The position numbers were made by a program, and so were the translations under genes. 7,079 nt of DNA, taken from NCBI RefSeq assembly GCF_003334305.1, contig NZ_QOWS01000048.1. One strand, given 5' to 3'. Position 1 is the first letter of the stretch. The number at the start of each line of letters is the position of its first letter. This DNA comes from Escherichia coli. GTDB lineage: Bacteria; Pseudomonadota; Gammaproteobacteria; Enterobacterales; Enterobacteriaceae. The notes beneath the pieces were generated by a model, which made no database searches, was not told where the DNA came from, and saw only the letters and a list, made by a program, of their open reading frames with translations. Positions 1 to 7,079 of this stretch are shown in pieces.

Positions 1-183
1 TCACGCCTGAAGGGAAAGCTGCACGTTATCAGCAAGCGTTACACTCAGCGCATTGAGCGACATAATCTGAATCTGAGGCAGCACCTGGCACGGCTGGGAC
101 GGAAGTCGCTGTCGTTCTCAAAATCGGTGGAGCTGCATGACAAAGTCATCGGGCATTATCTGAACATAAAACACTATCAATAA
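1..183 (+). CDS. insB: IS1 transposase InsB (InsAB') C-terminal fragment; 5' end outside window
   Basis: Open frame from the window edge to TAA at 181-183; the encoded C-terminus ...[24 protein letters not shown] matches IS1 InsB as I recall it. Confidence 0.85.
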
Positions 184-198
184 GTTGGAGTCATCACC
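176..198. repeat. IS1 right terminal inverted repeat (IRR)
   Basis: atcaataagttggagtcatcacc overlaps the insB stop codon, as in IS1, and is the near-reverse-complement of the IS1 left end GGTGATGCTGCCAACTTACTGAT. Confidence 0.7.
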
Positions 199-981
199 TA
201 CAACTGGGTACAGCATGAACCCTCAGACAGAAAACAAAGTGATGAGCGGCTAAAACTGGAGATTAAGGTGGCACATATCCGCACTCGCGAAACATATGGA
301 ACCCGGCGGCTCCAGACGGAGCTGGCAGAGAATGGCATCATCGTTGGTCGTGACCGACTGGCACGTCTTCGTAAGGAGCTAAGGCTACGCTGTAAGCAGA
401 AACGCAAGTTCAGAGCGACTACGAACTCGAACCACAATCTGCCAGTTGCGCCAAATCTGCTGAACCAGACGTTCGCTCCTACAGCACCAAATCAGGTCTG
501 GGTGGCGGACCTGACGTATGTTGCCACACAGGAGGGATGGTTGTACCTCGCTGGCATCAAAGATGTTTATACGTGCGAAATTGTCGGCTACGCCATGGGA
601 GAGCACATGACAAAAGAGCTGACAGGTAAAGCCCTGTTTATGGCGCTCAGGAGCCAGCGCCCACCTGCCGGGCTAATCCATCACTCTGATCGAGGTTCAC
701 AGTACTGCGCATACGATTACCGGATCATACAGGAGCAGTTTGGTCTGAAAACATCAATGTCGCGTAAAGGTAACTGTTACGACAACGCTCCGATGGAAAG
801 CTTCTGGGGAACGCTGAAAAATGAGAGCCTGAGCCACTATCGTTTTAATAACCGGGATGAAGCCATCTCAGTAATACGGGAATACATTGAGATTTTCTAC
901 AATCGTCAGCGTCGTCACTCTCGTCTGGGGAATATCTCCCCGGCAGCCTTCAGGGAAAAATATCATCAGATGACTGCTTAA
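199..981 (+). CDS. IS3-family transposase OrfB (DDE integrase catalytic domain), 5'-truncated
   Basis: The six-frame ORF 268-981 is open in-frame back to 184, with no start codon of its own. Product has IS3-family OrfB hallmarks: ...NQVWVADLTYV...EGWLYLAGIKDVYTCEIVGYAM..., HHSDRGSQYCA..., SMSRKGNCYDNAPMESFWGTLKNE..., YNRQRRHSRLGNISPAAF. Close to but not identical with IS3, IS150 or IS911 OrfB as I recall them. Confidence 0.85.
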   Translation, partial: YNWVQHEPSDRKQSDERLKLEIKVAHIRTRETYGTRRLQTELAENGIIVGRDRLARLRKELRLRCKQKRKFRATTNSNHNLPVAPNLLNQTFAPTAPNQVWVADLTYVATQEGWLYLAGIKDVYTCEIVGYAMGEHMTKELTGKALFMALRSQRPPAGLIHHSDRGSQYCAYDYRIIQEQFGLKTSMSRKGNCYDNAPMESFWGTLKNESLSHYRFNNRDEAISVIREYIEIFYNRQRRHSRLGNISPAAFREKYHQMTA

Positions 982-1023
982 AAAAGAACAAATGGTAGTG
1001 TCCGCTATTGCCAGTACACCTCA
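199..1023 (+). mobile_element. IS3-family element (possibly IS600-like), 3' portion only; 5' part displaced by the IS1 end at 198/199
   Basis: OrfB-type DDE transposase reading frame 199-981, then a putative right terminal IR whose reverse complement reads TGAGGTGTACTGGCAATAGCGGACACTACC (plus 994-1023, ending ...CA at 1023), typical of IS3-family TG...CA termini. No orfA or left IR is present between the IS1 end and orfB. Confidence 0.75.
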
Positions 1024-1223
1024 GGTATCAAAAAGCGATAGATGCAGCTAATACACGACATAACCAAGAAATAAATCATTAAACGACAACACTTAATACC
1101 ATATTGTGAAGATGTTCAGACATGGCGGAATTCCCCTATTCTTTGTTGGCGCTTACAACAGACTATATTCCGCCATATCTGTCTTTATTGTGTATAAACC
1201 ATCGATACTGATGTTTGATAGTG

Positions 1224-2522
1224 CTAAATAATCATTGGCGCAATCACAAAGCCTAATGCCACTCCAGCAATAATTCCCCCCAACCCAGGCAGCATAAATG
1301 GATGATTCAGCACATATTTGCCTACACGAGTTGTGCCGGTAGTATCAAATTCCATGGCAGCCAGTGATGTTGGATACGTTGGCAGTACAAATACTCCGGT
1401 GACGGCCACATAGGACGCCAGAATTGCCCAGGTGGGCACGTCAAGCGCGACGGCAAGCGGGATAATTAACGGCGTGGTCGCACCTTGCGAGTAGAGCAGC
1501 GCGCAAGTGCCAAAAAGAACCAGCGCCAACAACATCGGATACGCCTGCAAAATATCACCAGCAATATCTTTAATCTCAGTTAAATGCGCATCAATAAAAG
1601 TGGTGCCTAAGGTTACAATGCCGAGAATTACCGCCAGCGAACTCATCCCCGCACGGAATGTGGAGGTGAGAATAATGGCATCGGTCGCCGTCTTACACAG
1701 CATCACCATCAGGCAGGCGGCAGAGAGCATACAGATAATAATGATATCGCGTGTTTCCATCGGTTTACCGATATCAAAACCCGGACGCAGTTGGGGGAAG
1801 GCAGCAAGAATAACAATAGCGACCGTCGCCAGCAGGAACAATCCGACGGAGAGCGTCGCACCTGGCTTGATGCTGCTATTATTCTCGTATTTTTGCACCA
1901 GTCCTTTTTGCAGGCGCTCAAGGTAGACCTCGTCATCCTGCAACTCACATCCCTGTCGGGAAGCAATAAAAGCGGCGACCATCGCGGCAGCAAAAGAGGT
2001 GGGAAGACATACCGACATCACTTGAATAAAACTGACACCGTTTACCTCCATAATAGTGAGCATAGCCGCCATTGCGGCGCTGATCGGCGAACCGGAAATC
2101 GCAACCTGCGAAGCGACAACCGAACCGGCAAGCGTGCGGGAAGGACGGATACCGGACTCTTTCGCCACTTCAGCAATCACCGGCAGCGTGGAAAAAACAA
2201 TAAACCCAGTACCGGCCATAATGGTCATAGACCAGGTGATAATCGGCGCGATTATGTTGATATATTTCGGGTTACGCCGCATAAAATTACCAGCGACGCG
2301 TACCAGATAATCCATTCCGCCTGCGGCCTGTAAGGCTGAGGCCGCCACAACAACGGTCATAATAATCAGGATCACGTCGACTGGCGGCGACCCCATAGGC
2401 AGACCAAATCCCAGAGTCAGAATGGCAAGCCCAAGCCCGCCACATAAACCAATACCGATTCCCCCCTGGCGAATACCAAAAAATATTGCACCAAGTACTA
2501 CGATAATTTCCAGCCAAACCAT
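1224..2522 (-). CDS. Anaerobic C4-dicarboxylate transporter, DcuA/DcuB family (432 aa)
   Basis: The 432-aa product aligns along its whole length with E. coli DcuA as I recall it (N-terminus MVWLEIIVVLGAIFFGIRQGGIGIG... versus DcuA MLVVELIIVLLAIFLGARLGGIGIG...; RRNPKYI, TLPVIAEVAKE, LPTYPT, GTTRVGKYVLNHPF motifs). Strongly hydrophobic throughout. GGAG Shine-Dalgarno 7-8 nt upstream of the ATG at 2522. Confidence 0.9.
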   Translation of the reverse strand: MVWLEIIVVLGAIFFGIRQGGIGIGLCGGLGLAILTLGFGLPMGSPPVDVILIIMTVVVAASALQAAGGMDYLVRVAGNFMRRNPKYINIIAPIITWSMTIMAGTGFIVFSTLPVIAEVAKESGIRPSRTLAGSVVASQVAISGSPISAAMAAMLTIMEVNGVSFIQVMSVCLPTSFAAAMVAAFIASRQGCELQDDEVYLERLQKGLVQKYENNSSIKPGATLSVGLFLLATVAIVILAAFPQLRPGFDIGKPMETRDIIIICMLSAACLMVMLCKTATDAIILTSTFRAGMSSLAVILGIVTLGTTFIDAHLTEIKDIAGDILQAYPMLLALVLFGTCALLYSQGATTPLIIPLAVALDVPTWAILASYVAVTGVFVLPTYPTSLAAMEFDTTGTTRVGKYVLNHPFMLPGLGGIIAGVALGFVIAPMII

Positions 2523-2587
2523 AATGTTCTCCGTTATAAATATAATTCAGTTAAAAGCGAATAACTTTCTGGCTGCGATTTAAATGA

Positions 2588-3307
2588 TTATTGGGTTAAA
2601 AGATAATGTTTACCGACACGATTTTCGTACCATTTTATTCCGGCACGAACGAGTGACGCCGTTGAGTCAATATAGCGGGAAGGCTGCTCTTTAACGGCTT
2701 GCGCCAGAATAACCGGAATTTCTGTACAACCAAGAACAAGGATTTCTGCACCGCGAGAAAATAATATTTCAGCCTGCTCATTCATCAACTTTTGTGCGTG
2801 CGCTATATTGCCAGCTTTCAAGGAATAAATACTTTCCATCACTTTTTTCTGACCGTCGGCATCGGGGCTGACACAGGTAAATCCCAGCGACTCAATTCCT
2901 TTTTGGTATAAACCCATATATAGCGTGGCATTGGTGGCTAACAAGCCAATTCGGGTTTTACCACAGGCGCGAACTTCATTGATCGTAGTTTCTACGATAC
3001 TTAATATATCAATATGACAAGCATCTTTTAATTCTTTGAACCAGTAATGCGCGGTATTACAGGGAATAACAATACATTCTGCCCCGGCATCTTCCAGCTT
3101 ATGCATATAATCACGCATAACGGGTAATGGTGAACGCCCATGATGCATTAATGCATCGGTACGGTCAGGAATATCCGGGATCGAAGAAATAATTAAAGGA
3201 ATATGTTCCTGATCACATTGTGCAGCGGTAAAAGTTACAAATTTATTAAACAGGTCGACGGTAGCTGCCGGCCCCATTCCACCGAGTACACCAATTAAAC
3301 CTTTCAC
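2588..3307 (-). CDS. Asp/Glu racemase-family enzyme, aspartate-racemase-like (239 aa; GTG start)
   Basis: Signature motifs of PLP-independent two-cysteine amino-acid racemases: GVLGGMGP near the N-terminus, IVIPCNTAHYW (first catalytic Cys) and LVLGCTEIPV (second catalytic Cys). Start codon is GTG at 3305-3307 with a GAGG Shine-Dalgarno ~10 nt upstream; an in-frame stop lies 4 codons further upstream. Only 65 bp separate it from the downstream Dcu gene on the same strand, with no terminator seen, so the two are probably co-transcribed. Confidence 0.85.
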   Translation of the reverse strand: MKGLIGVLGGMGPAATVDLFNKFVTFTAAQCDQEHIPLIISSIPDIPDRTDALMHHGRSPLPVMRDYMHKLEDAGAECIVIPCNTAHYWFKELKDACHIDILSIVETTINEVRACGKTRIGLLATNATLYMGLYQKGIESLGFTCVSPDADGQKKVMESIYSLKAGNIAHAQKLMNEQAEILFSRGAEILVLGCTEIPVILAQAVKEQPSRYIDSTASLVRAGIKWYENRVGKHYLLTQ

Positions 3308-3651
3308 AATACCTGCCTCTCAAAACGTTAATGACAATACGCGGTAAATAACTGCTGCTCTCTTTTTTAACAGTCGAAATGGGCGATGAGAAATGCAAGG
3401 TTGTACAAGGCGATGCAAGACACGCATGATGCAGCTATGGAACATTCCGCTTATTCACCATAGTGATGATGTATTCTGGTTATCTGACGGAAAAATTTCG
3501 TTTTTTTGGCGAAATGTGATATCAACGTCAATACCGGAAATGAAGGGGTTATGCACAAAACGAATGATAAAGGCCAGGTTGTGCTAATTGAGAACATTAT
3601 TTTTATTGCCGGGATGTTTTATTATGTCTTTGGATTGAAAATACAGGTGCC
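3308..3651. promoter_or_regulatory. Divergent promoter/operator region between the racemase-Dcu operon and the LysR gene
   Basis: 344-bp non-coding gap between divergent start codons. Contains three 10-bp-phased direct repeats (atgcaagg 3393-3400, gtacaagg 3403-3410, atgcaaga 3413-3420), an overlapping ATGC-N7-GCAT dyad (3413-3427) and a TCAC-N4-GTGA dyad (3455-3466) with LysR-type T-N11-A spacing. Confidence 0.5.
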
Positions 3652-4596
3652 ATGGTAATGAAGAATATCGAGACAAAATGGTTATACGATTTCCTGACAC
3701 TGGAAGCCTGTCGCCATTTTTCTCAGGCGGCAAAAGAGCGTAATCTTTCGCAACCCGCATTCAGCCGACGAATTAAGGCGCTGGAGGCAGCGATCGGCGT
3801 TGTTTTATTCGATCGCACGACCACCCCTTTACAATTAACCGAAGAGGGCAAGCTCTTTCATTCCCAGACTCGCAGCTTATTACAGCAGCTTGAATGCAAT
3901 TTGGGGGAGTTAAACGGCCAGAGTTTACTCGGCGTTCCCAACATTAAAATTGCAGCCGCGCACTCACTATCCCTGAGCGTATTACCCAAACTGGTGCATT
4001 CACTTACCGCCTATGGCGGAGAATTTGTCTATCATGTTGAAGCCATTGATGTTGTCCAGGCCGTAAATACGTTACGCGAAGGCAAGAGTGACTTTATTAT
4101 TTCGTTTCGCGATGAAGATCTTATGCAATCGCCTTTTTGCTGCCTGAAACTGTTTGAATCTGAGTTGTACCCGGTATGTGCCGCCGACGCACAGGGGCAC
4201 CCTGTATTCGATATCACTCAGCCCCAGGTTCCTTTGCTCAACTATACCGCCACATCTTATATGGGCAGGTTGGTCAATCGTCATCTGGCAGAGGTTGGAG
4301 GTATTACCGGGCGCACGATATTTATCTCTTCGATGAGCGAGTTATTAAAGAATATGGCGCTCAACGGATACGGCATTGCCTGGTTACCGATCTGGTCGAT
4401 CGTCGATGAACTACAGACCAAACGTCTGATATGCCTTGATGCTGCTAAATTGACAGTCCCCATTCAGGCTTATATTTACCGAATGAACACCCGACTGAAT
4501 AGAACCGCCGAGAACCTCTGGCGTATTTTACAGGAACATATGCCAGACGATTTAATCCAGCAGATATCAATGGAAGAGCCAGCATGCCGCAATTGA
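3652..4596 (+). CDS. LysR-family transcriptional regulator (LTTR), YjiE/HypT-like; true start more likely the ATG at 3658
   Basis: N-terminal winged-HTH region (...LEACRHFSQAAKERNLSQPAFSRRIKALEAAIGVVLFDR...) followed by a LysR-type substrate-binding domain. The N-terminus resembles what I recall of E. coli YjiE (...NIETKWLYDFLTLE...). An AGGTG Shine-Dalgarno at 3645-3649 sits 8 nt before the ATG at 3658 but only 2 nt before the ATG at 3652. Confidence 0.9.
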   Translation: MVMKNIETKWLYDFLTLEACRHFSQAAKERNLSQPAFSRRIKALEAAIGVVLFDRTTTPLQLTEEGKLFHSQTRSLLQQLECNLGELNGQSLLGVPNIKIAAAHSLSLSVLPKLVHSLTAYGGEFVYHVEAIDVVQAVNTLREGKSDFIISFRDEDLMQSPFCCLKLFESELYPVCAADAQGHPVFDITQPQVPLLNYTATSYMGRLVNRHLAEVGGITGRTIFISSMSELLKNMALNGYGIAWLPIWSIVDELQTKRLICLDAAKLTVPIQAYIYRMNTRLNRTAENLWRILQEHMPDDLIQQISMEEPACRN

Positions 4597-4613
4597 CGAC
4601 GTGCAATAAATAT

Positions 4614-4637
4614 CCTCCGGCATAGCCGGAGGTTTTT
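4614..4637 (+). terminator. GC-rich hairpin plus T5 tract 18 bp downstream of the lysR stop (probably the IS200 right-end hairpin)
   Basis: CCTCCGGC-ATA-GCCGGAGG perfect stem (4614-4632) followed by TTTTT (4633-4637) has the form of an intrinsic terminator for plus-strand transcripts. By my boundary estimate it lies inside the IS200 right end. Confidence 0.6.
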
Positions 4638-4713
4638 CAAATGCGCCTATAAGGCTCTCTTACCAGCCGCGCCCTAACAGGCGCACACGATCTGACATTT
4701 GCATCCAACTTCG

Positions 4714-5173
4714 TTACTTACGGTCCGTAAACGGGCTGCCCGGACAGGGAATCGATAACTGCTCTCCCATTTTATCCTCTTCAAGCTGGTGCTTTATGTA
4801 ATCCTGTATCTTCGCCGTGTTCTTACCCACTGTATCGACGTAGTCCCCCCTGCACCAGAACTCCCTGTTCCTGTATTTGAATTTCAAATCACCAAACTGC
4901 TCGTAAAGCATCAGACTGCTTTTCCCTTTCAGATATCCCATAAACCCGGATACGCTCATTTTGGGCGGGATCTCCACAAGCATATGGATATGATCTGCAC
5001 AGCATTCAGCTTCCAGAATCCGTACGCTTTTCCACTCACACAGCTTTCTCAAAATACTGCCTGTTGCTCTACGCTTCTCTCTGTAGAACACCTGTCTTCG
5101 GTATTTTGGCGCAAAAAACTATGTGATATTTACAGTTCCATCGGGTGTGCGCTAAGCTCTTTTCGTTCCCCAT
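4714..5173 (-). pseudogene. tnpA: IS200 transposase tnpA (Y1/HuH), apparently frameshifted
   Basis: ATG at 5173 (minus) opens MGNEKSLAHTRWNCKYHIVF, then the frame changes at a T6 run (plus A6 at 5113-5118). The remainder ...FAPKYRRQVFYREKRRATGSILRKLCEWKSVRILEAECCADHIHMLVEIPPKMS...FWCRGDYVDTVGKNTAKIQDYIKHQLEEDKMGEQLSIPCPGSPFTDRK* is in another frame (six-frame ORF 4714-5091). The intact IS200 TnpA as I recall it reads through ...KYHIVFAPKYRRQ..., so this copy appears to carry one extra T. Confidence 0.75.
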
Positions 5174-5179
5174 TGGGAC

Positions 5180-5249
5180 CCCCTTTTGATTTCTTGTTTG
5201 ACACTTGCAGTTGCCAGACCGCAAGGTGTTTTAACAAATCAAAAGGGGT
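5180..5249 (-). promoter_or_regulatory. IS200 5'UTR stem-loop that sequesters the tnpA ribosome-binding site
   Basis: Perfect 13-bp inverted repeat: CCCCUUUUGAUUU pairs with AAAUCAAAAGGGG across a ~44-nt loop on the minus-strand transcript. The 3' arm contains the AAGGGGG Shine-Dalgarno just upstream of the AUG at 5173. Matches the described IS200 nt 69-138 structure. Confidence 0.7.
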
Positions 5250-5283
5250 TTTAATAACTGGCTCAAAGCTGAAAGCTTTCCGG

Positions 5284-5306
5284 AACCCCCAGCCTAGCTG
5301 GGAGTT
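5284..5306 (-). promoter_or_regulatory. IS200 left-end hairpin (described as blocking read-in transcription)
   Basis: Minus-strand AACTCCCAGC-TAG-GCTGGGGGTT forms a 10-bp stem (one G.U pair) with a 3-nt loop, 23 nt in total, at the position expected for the IS200 nt 12-34 hairpin. Confidence 0.55.
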
Positions 5307-5316
5307 TTCTGTGCAC

Positions 5317-5344
5317 AAAAAAACCCTGTAAAAAACTTACAGGG
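5317..5344 (-). terminator. Perfect palindrome plus T7 tract (minus-strand intrinsic terminator) abutting the IS200 left end
   Basis: Minus strand reads CCCTGTAA-GTTTT-TTACAGGG followed by TTTTTTT (plus 5324-5344 stem-loop, plus 5317-5323 A7): an 8-bp perfect stem with a U-tract. Confidence 0.55.
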
Positions 5345-5942
5345 GTATAAGGCTTAGCCTAACTTGCGTCTGTTGCATGGTGCCGGGTGCCTCCCGGTGA
5401 ATTCAGTCGGTGTCACTGAACCCGCGTAGGCTTCGCTCATAACATAATAAATGCTATGTACACCAGTCGCCCCACCGCACAGGGGGATTCACCACACGGC
5501 GCACTTTTTAACAAATATCCCTCCGGCCAGACAATAATAAACATAATGAATTGTGATCTTCTTAACAGTTTTAAAGTGTTACAGATAACATGCCAAGTAA
5601 TTGCTTGTTTTTTCATCAATAGGAAGACCACACCAACAACCCCAGCTATCAGCCAGAACCGACATTATCCGGCTGATAAAATCTACCATCACTCCAACAC
5701 CAATCACCGCCTGTGCCAGATCGCGTTTCTCAAACTTTTTAATCTCTGTTGCCACTCTGCGGGTTTTCTTTTTGAATTTTGAAAATACCAAATATCGTGA
5801 CGTTTCTTTGGGGGATGAGCTATCAAGCGGGAACGATCTGCCTACAGAGAAAGTCAGCCAGACCACTCTGCAAATTATCCCCGAAAGGCTCTGTGGCTGA
5901 TATGCGCCGGGCATGGCGCAATGGGCCAGTGGCAGTGTGTGA

Positions 5943-6015
5943 TGGTGGCCCTTACTGGATTTGAACCAGCGACCAAGCGATTATGAGTCCTCTTACCACT
6001 GAGCTAAAGGGTTGG
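5943..6015 (-). tRNA. Degenerate tRNA(CAU)-like sequence resembling tRNA-Ile2 (ileX/ileY-like); probable pseudogene or attachment-site relic
   Basis: Minus strand reads AACCCTTTAGCTCAGTGGTAAGAGGACTCATAATCGCTTGGTCGCTGGTTCAAATCCAGTAAGGGCCACCA. The T-arm, variable loop, CTCATAA anticodon loop (CAT) and 3' acceptor-CCA are recognisable and resemble E. coli tRNA-Ile2 as I recall it. However ~5 nt are missing at the D-stem/anticodon-stem junction, and the first two acceptor-stem positions (AA instead of GG) cannot pair with the 3' strand. Confidence 0.55.
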
Positions 6016-6279
6016 AGAACGCAATATCACCTGTCTTATATGATTACACCCAGAATTTCCCGGACTGTCTTGTCAAAACATTCAGTCTCCAATTCCCACC
6101 AATAGCAAGACGGTCACTATGACAGCATCTCCGGAATGAGCTCAGGGCACGGGGGTTTACCGAGGTTACTTTTCCAACGAAGTTTCTCAAACGCAGGCGT
6201 GACAGATAACATTCAAACTTAGGATCTCAGTTGCTATCTTTTCCCATGTCTTACGGATTAATGTCATCGGTTGCATACA

Positions 6280-6657
6280 AATCGCTACAAGCTGCATCAA
6301 GGCACATGCTTCATATGTACAGTACACCAAGATGGATAGGTGTTTCACCTAATCCTAGCTCATTTCAGGCAGGCTCAACAGGCTGCAGCCCGCATGTTTA
6401 AGGGCGCAGGTTATCAGCAGGTTATAAGCTGACCGGATACATTCCGGCAAAGAAAAACCTTGCAGCGATGAAAGCCGTTTCGGTAATGCAATGACGATAA
6501 AGCTGTCCTGTATATATGTGCTTCGCCTCAAACGCTTGCCGTTTTGGTATTGTGCACATGCCGTCTGAACGATGTGGAGCCAGAAAAATGGATGCGTTAT
6601 GTCATTGAGCATATCTAGGACTGGCCGGCAAACCGGGTACACGATCTGTTGCTCTAA
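6280..6657 (+). pseudogene. IS66-family transposase (TnpC) C-terminal remnant, degraded
   Basis: Frame-1 translation 6487-6657 gives ...AVLVLCTCRLNDVEPEKWMRYVIEHI*DWPANRVHDLLL*, which resembles the conserved IS66 TnpC C-terminus (...LIGTCKLNDVDPE.YLRHVL..IADWPVNRVSELLPW) as I recall it, but with an in-frame TAG at 6616-6618. Upstream similarity (e.g. CIKAHA at ~6290-6307, where CWAHARRK would be expected) is weak and needs frame changes. Possible element terminus GCGCTTAC at 6756-6763 or 6704-6711 (reverse complement GTAAGCG...). Confidence 0.45.
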
Positions 6658-6788
6658 ATAGTTGAGCTGGCCTCTCAGTAAATATCAATACGGTTTTGGT
6701 GAGCCGCTTACCACTGAAGCATCACTTCGGCAGGTAGATTTCTGCAGGCAGAATGGCGCTTACCTTAGCGATAAGCGCGTAAATGTGG

Positions 6789-7079
6789 TTATTCAATACC
6801 TGTGGTGACTGTAAAAGTGCGCGTTTGCTGCGGTGCAACCTGAATCAGCGTGCCATTACGTTGCGCGGCAAGATACCCCTCAGGTCGACAGGTTGCTGGT
6901 AATGCAAAGGCGGCTACCTGTTGCTCGCCGTTATAAAGGATCCAGCGTGTCACATAATTTAGTTCAGCACTGGAGAAACGAGTAACAAACGTAGTGCCAT
7001 CGGGAGCGATCATGCGAAACTCTGGCTGATCTGTGTAAGCGTCCAGTTTGTCTGCAAAGAAGACTATTTCTGGATCATA
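6789..7079 (-). CDS. 3' end of a protein-coding gene of unknown function (C-terminal 96 aa; continues beyond the window)
   Basis: Minus-strand frame is open from the window edge at 7079 to TAA at 6789-6791: YDPEIVFFADKLDAYTDQPEFRMIAPDGTTFVTRFSSAELNYVTRWILYNGEQQVAAFALPATCRPEGYLAAQRNGTLIQVAPQQTRTFTVTTGIE*. The six-frame ORF 6789-7013 is its internal-ATG-limited part. I recognise no family. Confidence 0.5.
   Translation of the reverse strand, partial: YDPEIVFFADKLDAYTDQPEFRMIAPDGTTFVTRFSSAELNYVTRWILYNGEQQVAAFALPATCRPEGYLAAQRNGTLIQVAPQQTRTFTVTTGIE

Follow-up and report, generated by a model that had tools for sequence, protein, structure and literature searches.

The D-aspartate utilisation module of the Shigella SRL pathogenicity island in an IS-rich stretch of Escherichia coli DNA

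The SRL pathogenicity island (SRL PAI) of Shigella flexneri 2a YSH6000 is a 66-kb element located at serX (Luck 2001; Turner 2001/2003; Henriquez 2020, PMC6980539), and its genes include orf7 (LysR-family regulator), orf8 (aspartate racemase) and orf9 (DcuA-like transporter). Henriquez et al. found that loss of the island abolishes D-aspartate metabolism and that the cloned orf8-orf9 pair restores D-aspartate consumption, the appearance of L-aspartate and growth on D-aspartate in S. flexneri and S. sonnei; the D/L-aspartate interconversion was read indirectly, by high-performance liquid chromatography-mass spectrometry of culture supernatants with the Shigella orf8-orf9 fragment (PMC6980539). 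A review counts “AspR-DcuA” among the determinants of the SRL PAI, and also gives 14-bp repeats, serX and serW as features of this island. Here we describe a stretch of 7,079 nucleotides from Escherichia coli (contig NZ_QOWS01000048.1, assembly GCF_003334305.1), called the window in the following, whose racemase, Dcu and LysR genes are the already characterised orf7-orf9 D-aspartate unit of the SRL PAI, the biology of which is already known. The window is very probably a segment of an SRL-PAI-type island at serX/serW, which carries this D-aspartate utilisation module and has been shuffled by the activity of insertion sequences (IS).

A reading of the letters of the window made before any database search (the sequence-only reading) had seen a metabolic module among IS families and a decayed tRNA, and it missed the SRL PAI identity, the phage origin of the tRNA relic and the Citrobacter context of the module. 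What can be added to the published work is incremental: distribution figures, a minimal mobile block, the Citrobacter context, an allele with its own aspartase, a conserved regulatory box, the prophage origin of the tRNA relic and a conflict of annotation. The direct payoff is modest, and no new question is opened.

The racemase-Dcu-LysR module and its Shigella counterpart

For all four primers of the Shigella study (PMC6980539) the window has an exact match, at 1024-1047 (reverse primer used for cloning), 2505-2522 (the orf9 forward primer), 3261-3277 and 3432-3452, and the gene order and products agree with Table 2 of that paper. Strain HUSEC2011, which the same paper names as a carrier of the module, shares 99.6% identity with window 1-6266. 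The racemase scores 187.7 bits against TIGR00035 (cut-off 93.1; PF01177 family), and its nearest solved structures are PDB 3S7Z, labelled “putative aspartate racemase” (E 3e-76), and the aspartate racemase 1JFL (E 6e-49), with both of which its catalytic cysteines in the CNTAH and GCTE motifs align. By family (TIGR00035/PF01177) and by these cysteines it is similar to the aspartate racemases independent of pyridoxal phosphate (PLP), such as 1JFL from Pyrococcus horikoshii and 3S7Z. Unlike them, it shares a stretch of mobile DNA with the genes for a dedicated Dcu carrier and a LysR regulator, and it serves in catabolism or detoxification.

The start of the racemase gene differs from the one used before. 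The published single-gene orf8 construct (PMC6980539) begins at the ATG at 3277, which is Met11, and thereby omits ten conserved residues of the N-terminus, MKGLIGVLGG; solved aspartate racemases, by their homology, favour the GTG start at 3307. Because those ten residues are missing from the construct, the failure of orf8 alone to complement proves no requirement for the transporter.

In the proposed mechanism, the DcuA-like carrier would import D-aspartate and the two-cysteine, PLP-independent racemase would turn it into L-aspartate, and for the Shigella copy it has been shown by experiment that these two steps act together (PMC6980539). L-aspartate would then pass into central metabolism through a host aspartase or transaminase. 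The divergent LysR protein probably controls the racemase-dcu operon through a conserved ATGC-N7-GCAT box; the regulator's role and effector, like the aspartase link, are inferred.

Several points weigh against this reading of the window. The experimental evidence belongs to the Shigella copy and not to the present E. coli copy, and the identity with the Shigella genes rests on the primers and on HUSEC2011. The window allele is without a linked aspartase, and the curated NCBI model that names the racemase, NF052483 (“racemase_CuyB”, an equivalog), is that of the cysteate racemase CuyB, which it matches with 249 bits against a cut-off of 190. Besides, the fragment that complemented in Shigella corresponds to window 1024-3452, which includes the regulatory box and lacks the LysR gene, so the regulator is dispensable at pUC copy number. 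The genome counts given below also take no account of kinship among genomes.

The anatomy of the window, obtained from a six-frame listing of open reading frames, family profile searches and Rfam, is summarized in Table 1.

Table 1. Features of the 7,079-nt window, with the evidence for each
Position	Strand	Feature	Evidence
1-198	+	IS1, 3' end: InsB C-terminus 1-183, right terminal repeat to 198; cut by window edge	NF033558
199-1023	+	IS600 (IS3 family), 5'-truncated, 825 bp left; orfB remnant to 981	NF033516
1024-1223		AT-rich spacer downstream of dcu, part of the mobile block	Block boundary, published reverse primer
1224-2522	-	DcuA-like anaerobic C4-dicarboxylate/aspartate transporter (SRL PAI orf9), 432 aa, intact	NF006927, 582.6 bits
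2588-3307	-	PLP-independent two-cysteine aspartate racemase (SRL PAI orf8), 239 aa, GTG start, intact	TIGR00035
3413-3427		Candidate LysR-type box ATGCAAGACACGCAT, ATGC-N7-GCAT, T-N11-A	Alignment of 13 intergenic regions
3652/3658-4596	+	LysR-family regulator (SRL PAI orf7), HypT/YjiE paralogue, divergent from racemase-dcu, intact	NF007488
4605-5312	-	IS200, full length; tnpA 4714-5173 frameshifted	NF033573 matches on two reading frames
5313-5527	-	STnc100-family prophage small RNA gene	Rfam RF02076, 136.4 bits, full model length
5648-5920	-	DUF3927 gene remnant (annotated 5678-5791); TerB-family gene, 5' part and upstream remnant	NCBI annotation, blastn
5943-6013	-	tRNA-Ile(CAT) pseudogene, phage-borne ileZ type	Rfam, 30.7 bits (gathering score 29)
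6200-6202		IS100 (IS21 family) target site, empty in window, filled in many related strains	Direct comparison
~6493-6657	+	IS66-family transposase C-terminal remnant, ~50 codons, in-frame stop	Pfam PF13817, E 1.3e-11
6789-7079	-	Aldose-1-epimerase-family gene, 3' end, cut by window edge	NCBI annotation

The host island, distribution and alleles of the module

Several complete E. coli chromosomes contain the window at 100% identity. That of strain LSC52 has it inside a 61.8-kb island of 48.9% GC, whose ends are a 14-bp direct repeat, CCCCCTCACCGCCA, found at the 3' end of serX and again 61.8 kb off, beside the tyrosine integrase WP_000279872.1, which sits at one island end outside the window. 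The island boundaries, which the sequence-only reading had left to whole-genome alignment, are thus located about 62 kb apart at the 14-bp serX 3'-end repeats. This island shares with the SRL PAI the same orf7-orf8-orf9 (exact primers), the ferric-dicitrate operon fecIRABCDE (outside the window), the tyrosine integrase and the 14-bp repeats, as well as an IS1 immediately beyond dcu and many IS remnants. Unlike the SRL PAI, it holds an Orn/Lys/Arg decarboxylase with two antiporters, a deoK-like operon, sugar genes and TOTE defence remnants instead of the SRL element, and in E. coli the outer flanks vary widely among strains. A CP4-type toxin-antitoxin module is also carried by the LSC52 island. 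Neither resistance genes nor the 16-kb SRL multi-resistance element (tet, cat, oxa-1, aadA1) are annotated in it; for this reason we regard it as an SRL-less relative and not as the SRL PAI itself.

Strain 5CRE51 has the identical integrase and the identical 14-bp repeat adjoining clpA, a position which we take, from the K-12 map, to be the serW locus. No tRNA is annotated in the clpA stretch examined in this strain, which probably illustrates serW as the second island site that earlier literature had suspected. In LSC52, the integrase end has the 14-bp repeat only, and the intact serX is found at the opposite end (comparison loci L027, 39896-39983, and L028, 7454-8830), next to a CbtA/CbeA toxin-antitoxin module. 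Left of the window, the Orn/Lys/Arg-family decarboxylase is placed between two basic amino acid/polyamine antiporters (locus L001, 13826-19343), which gives an acid-resistance-like cassette at the position that the SRL resistance element has in the Shigella island.

The composition of the module is also atypical. Its GC content is 46.7% versus 52.5 ± 1.9% in 12 nearby core genes, and the GC content at third codon positions (GC3) is 35.8% for the racemase versus 57.5 ± 4.7% for the same core genes, so this comparison with core genes, which had been suggested as a check, agrees with the idea of a strain-variable cargo.

We ran BLAST, with a limit on the matches per record, against 5,426 complete E. 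coli genomes, and all counts given here ignore kinship among them. It turned out that 581 genomes carry the dcu-racemase pair, which bears out the earlier suggestion of a strain-variable cargo and shows that the genes are not universal in E. coli. Most of the records fall into two classes, 350 at ≥99% identity and 232 at 80-90%, with 1 at 90-95%; almost all of the 80-90% class lie at about 85.9%, and one at 88.8%. The full three-gene region was found in 348 genomes and the whole window in 252. Homology among the E. coli alleles is limited to about 1224/1231-4596, exactly the three genes. Published as a Shigella fitness trait, the use of D-aspartate extends to some 6-11% of the E. coli with complete genomes, where its genes are found on islands at serX/serW, on islands elsewhere and on plasmids, in some cases beside blaCMY-2.

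The junctions between the module and its neighbouring IS elements are widely shared. The junction of IS1, truncated IS600 and dcu is common to at least 201 genomes (a lower bound, as IS1 copies use up the limit on matches per record), and the junction of LysR, IS200 and STnc100 is found in 215. Junctions common to at least 200 genomes with different outer contexts agree with the view of an old, repeatedly hit accessory locus, and the IS elements are not late, strain-specific arrivals. In all eight inspected carriers of the ≥99% allele, IS200 occupies one fixed position and its state varies: it is frameshifted in most of them, intact in 98209 and interrupted by an internal stop in EcPF14.

The block from window position 1 to 5657/6266 recurs at 99.6% identity with varied outer flanks. 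It ends at 6266 in HUSEC2011, where an IS21-family remnant and ter-like genes come next, at 5657 in 5CRE51 and 21437 (IS3 family), and at 5240 in 98209 (blaCMY-2-ISEcp1). In EcPF14 it starts at 1024, without IS600 or IS1 and with contact-dependent inhibition genes on the far side. From these differing ends the minimal common block is window 1024-5240; the stretch 5310-6790 is uninterrupted in only 71 genomes. The region has been hit by at least eight IS or transposition events, which belong to seven kinds. As part of the best explanation, we consider it highly likely that the module and IS200 (1024-5240) form a discrete cargo block, which repeated IS insertion and rearrangement have shuffled among islands and plasmids. 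The locus can serve as a worked example of a small metabolic cassette carried between contexts by repeated IS activity. For instance, on the 98209 chromosome (L038) and on the 14.8-kb plasmid pEC5106 (L041), the module and an intact IS200 lie directly beside blaCMY-2-ISEcp1, indicating that the cassette has been co-mobilised with a cephalosporinase gene in some lineages.

The allele of about 86% identity has an aspartate ammonia-lyase (aspartase) gene after dcu on the same strand, both on the chromosome and on a conjugative IncF/IncI (IncFIB/IncI) plasmid. This linkage fits a presumed route from D-aspartate through L-aspartate to fumarate and ammonium. The module is here similar to the core aspA-dcuA genes of E. 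coli for L-aspartate uptake and deamination, as a Dcu carrier is coupled to aspartate metabolism and this allele has its own aspartase; unlike them, it is accessory, adds a racemase for the D-enantiomer and has its own LysR regulator. We rejected a loss of the aspartase from the window allele at the IS600 junction, since the spacer 982-1223 and the dcu-aspA region of the 86% allele are not homologous and the three-gene loci of Citrobacter, Limnobaculum, Leminorella and Trabulsiella have no aspartase within 8 kb. The non-homologous spacer and the aspartase-free form elsewhere indicate that the aspartase is an addition to one allele. The 86% allele adjoins a second dgoRKADT galactonate cluster, both in its chromosomal form (about 232 genomes; L002, 10371-15309) and on the plasmid (L042, 5371-10309). 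About 560 bp from its LysR gene there is likewise an IS200, which has the opposite orientation.

To look beyond E. coli, we scanned species-representative genomes. The same unit, with LysR divergent from racemase-dcu, was found in 12 Citrobacter representatives, E. albertii, Trabulsiella, two Limnobaculum species and Leminorella; its linkage in Citrobacter, Trabulsiella, Limnobaculum and Leminorella indicates that the three-gene form is a conserved unit. In Citrobacter its position is conserved, between yeiE-yeiH-nfo and fruA-fruK-fruB-setB, with both flanks syntenic across species, and no IS elements are annotated among the flanking genes of the representative Citrobacter locus L006. Citrobacter keeps the module in a fixed, IS-free nfo-fruA context. 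In L006 (6756-10096), the racemase has a GC3 of 37% versus 54-59% for its neighbours (nfo 59%), and this composition suggests that the Citrobacter module may be an older acquisition from a donor of lower GC.

Two contigs of 4.0-4.1 kb (L003 and L004), from metagenome-assembled genomes labelled Lachnospiraceae and “Proteobacteria”, match window 874/898-4944 with 99.8-100% identity and end inside IS600 and IS200. Almost certainly, both are pieces of E. coli DNA that broke at repeats and were mis-binned.

The LysR regulator and its control region

The promoter region shared by the divergent genes (3308-3651) holds the candidate box ATGCAAGACACGCAT, some 110 bp upstream of where the racemase starts; the box occurs once in the window. 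It is part of a conserved core in the alignment of 13 intergenic regions, which come from the E. coli alleles, E. albertii, Citrobacter, Trabulsiella, Limnobaculum and Leminorella, and its ATGCA and GCAT half-sites are invariant in all of them. Judged from this conservation, the LysR protein may bind at 3413-3427. A sigma-70 consensus scan gave 4 sites versus 7.3 expected, none of them in the divergent intergenic region.

The regulator matches NF007488, the equivalog model of HypT, with 407.6 bits (cut-off 301), and its structural match is PDB 5YDW (E 1e-108). The genuine core hypT adjoins iadA, and the neighbourhood of the island regulator differs; the two proteins share 59% identity. Met123, Met206 and Met230 of HypT were reportedly found by Drazic et al. 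in 2013 to be needed for oxidative activation. Of these residues, M206 and M230 are invariant, and position 123 is Leu in the island LysR. The NCBI names “cuyB” and “hypT” were given because both proteins exceed the cut-offs of curated hidden Markov models, and both labels are probably over-annotations of paralogues.

Core HypT (YjiE) is encoded beside iadA, a beta-aspartyl peptidase gene (L036, 2737-4885), as the island paralogue is beside an aspartate racemase gene. This hints that the HypT-like regulator family is tied to aspartate-derivative metabolism. A more far-reaching idea is that the island LysR and its ATGC-N7-GCAT box form a dedicated switch for D-aspartate (or D-amino acids) and that the racemase accepts both aspartate and cysteate, which we hold to be unlikely. 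If it were true, carrier E. coli, Shigella and Citrobacter would be favoured in the gut niche by D-aspartate that comes from bacterial cell walls and by sulfonates of host or dietary origin, and the wider HypT/YjiE family would primarily regulate aspartate-derivative metabolism.

Alternative explanations and the remnants around the module

Cysteate is structurally analogous to aspartate, and some aspartate racemases take it as a substrate too. Together with the CuyB equivalog match given above, this would favour an enzyme that is a cysteate racemase (CuyB), in a module that serves sulfonate (cysteate) metabolism and not aspartate. However, what defines CuyB is that it works together with CuyA, a D-cysteate sulfo-lyase (PMC11193023), and no CuyA-like gene is annotated or was found beside the module in the window, L001, L002 or the Citrobacter locus L006. 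With the CuyB-CuyA pair of Bilophila wadsworthia (PMC11193023) the locus shares a same-family racemase encoded next to a transporter; it differs from this pair in having no CuyA partner in the annotated neighbourhoods, a Dcu carrier in place of an SDF transporter, and aspartate as the substrate of the Shigella copy. The phenotype of the same Shigella genes is the use of D-aspartate (PMC6980539), one allele is linked to an aspartase, and the nearest solved structures are aspartate racemases, so a cysteate-dedicated module is highly improbable. Cysteate may be a side substrate of the racemase, as its similarity to CuyB would allow. The automated labels “cysteate racemase CuyB” and “HypT” contradict the experimental evidence. 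Another explanation, that the three genes are silent or decaying cargo without current function in this E. coli lineage, takes support from the degraded state of all their surroundings and from the regulator, whose role is only presumed. Against it, the three frames are intact and conserved at ≥99% in 350 genomes and in several contexts, the adjacent IS200 has meanwhile gathered different inactivating mutations, and the promoter region with its conserved box is intact; we consider silent cargo highly improbable. As for an ancestral E. coli core locus on which IS elements landed recently in single strains, the conserved, IS-free nfo-fruA context in Citrobacter could be cited for it. We give it practically no credence, as the module is present in only about one tenth of the E. 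coli genomes (581 of 5,426), lies on an integrase-bearing island with tRNA-derived repeats at two different sites and also on plasmids, shares its IS junctions across at least 200 genomes and has an atypical composition.

The decayed tRNA allows a further alternative, in which the relic marks a former attachment site, with an island captured inside an island at a tRNA of the ileX/ileY type. The relic, whose anticodon loop reads CAT, shows 88-90% identity with E. coli tRNA-Ile(CAT), and ileX is listed in a review as the insertion site of some islands, both of which would suit such a capture. Nevertheless, nearly the whole tRNA is present, including its 5' half and not just a 3' repeat, and no integrase adjoins it. 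In addition, window 5373-6011 is collinear, at 82-100% identity, with the lambdoid late region of strain 2013C-4361, which reads DUF1133, tRNA-Ile, tRNA-Arg, TerB-family, DUF3927 and then esterase, holin and lysozyme; the shared order of tRNA-Ile, tRNA-Arg, TerB-family, DUF3927 and STnc100 is broken in the window by internal deletions, which removed tRNA-Arg and most of the TerB-family gene. On this collinearity we rejected the old attachment site, leaving it only a very small probability, and consider the relic to be a phage-borne pseudogene in a scrap of prophage. In the preferred reading, an SRL-PAI-type island segment shuffled by IS activity, this scrap adjoins the module in the present lineage and supplies the tRNA relic.

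The prophage remnant itself (5313-6013, minus strand) is a decayed, Stx-phage-like fragment of a lambdoid late region embedded in the island. As in the late regions of Stx-type lambdoid phages (ileZ-argN-argO, STnc100/PasD), the order and orientation of tRNA-Ile, TerB-family, DUF3927 and STnc100 are kept; unlike them, the fragment is heavily deleted, its tRNA is inactivated, and it has no phage structural or lysis genes. The 5648-5920 remnants are 82-84% identical to prophage L035 (blastn), and the tRNA relic is 87% identical to the prophage tRNA-Ile in L035, at a collinear position. ARAGORN finds no tRNA in the window. In the relic, the 5' strand of the anticodon stem (5 nt) is missing and the acceptor stem is mismatched, and the sequence folds without a cloverleaf (fold z-score -0.48). 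STnc100 is a prophage-encoded small RNA related to PasD (bioRxiv 10.64898/2026.05.13.724894), and since the match spans the full Rfam model, the small RNA gene itself may be intact.

Every element named in the sequence-only reading is present around the racemase, Dcu and LysR genes, namely IS1, an IS3-family element, IS200, the IS66 remnant and the decayed tRNA. Its statement that three of the four IS elements are truncated or frameshifted holds for IS600 and IS66 (truncated) and IS200 (frameshifted), but IS1 is defective as well in LSC52, where it has an internal stop. In the NCBI annotation, the full IS1 copy is a pseudogene with an internal stop in LSC52 and HUSEC2011 and is intact in AHB5 and 5CRE51; window 1-198/199 matches other IS1 copies at 95%. 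IS1 is inserted into IS600. The IS600 copy matches NF033516 with 294.9 bits over profile positions 146-369 of 369, and NCBI labels it “IS600 family transposase, missing N-terminus”. Its right end is at 1023, and homology with the IS600-free EcPF14 starts exactly at 1024.

IS200 starts nine bases past the LysR stop codon, and its tnpA is frameshifted by an additional A at 5113, which the intact copy of strain 98209 does not have. Its 5' untranslated region corresponds to Rfam STnc490 (RF01405; 5183-5306, 143 bits). The search with NCBIfam recognised neither the IS66 remnant nor the DUF3927 fragment, and the IS66 remnant was found by Pfam. Translated pieces upstream of 6493 have a faint likeness to further IS66 transposase sequence. 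The stretch 6014-6490 holds no recognisable gene, and NCBI annotates a frameshifted partial “hypothetical protein” at 6120-6310.

An IS100 insertion at about 6269, the end of the HUSEC2011 homology, was considered and rejected, as direct comparison places the IS100 site at 6200-6202; the breakpoint of HUSEC2011 at 6266 goes back to a different event, of the IS21 family. At the right edge of the window, the epimerase gene is the first of the deoK-like sugar operon in L001 (NCBI annotation), followed by a fucP-like permease, ribokinase and DeoR.

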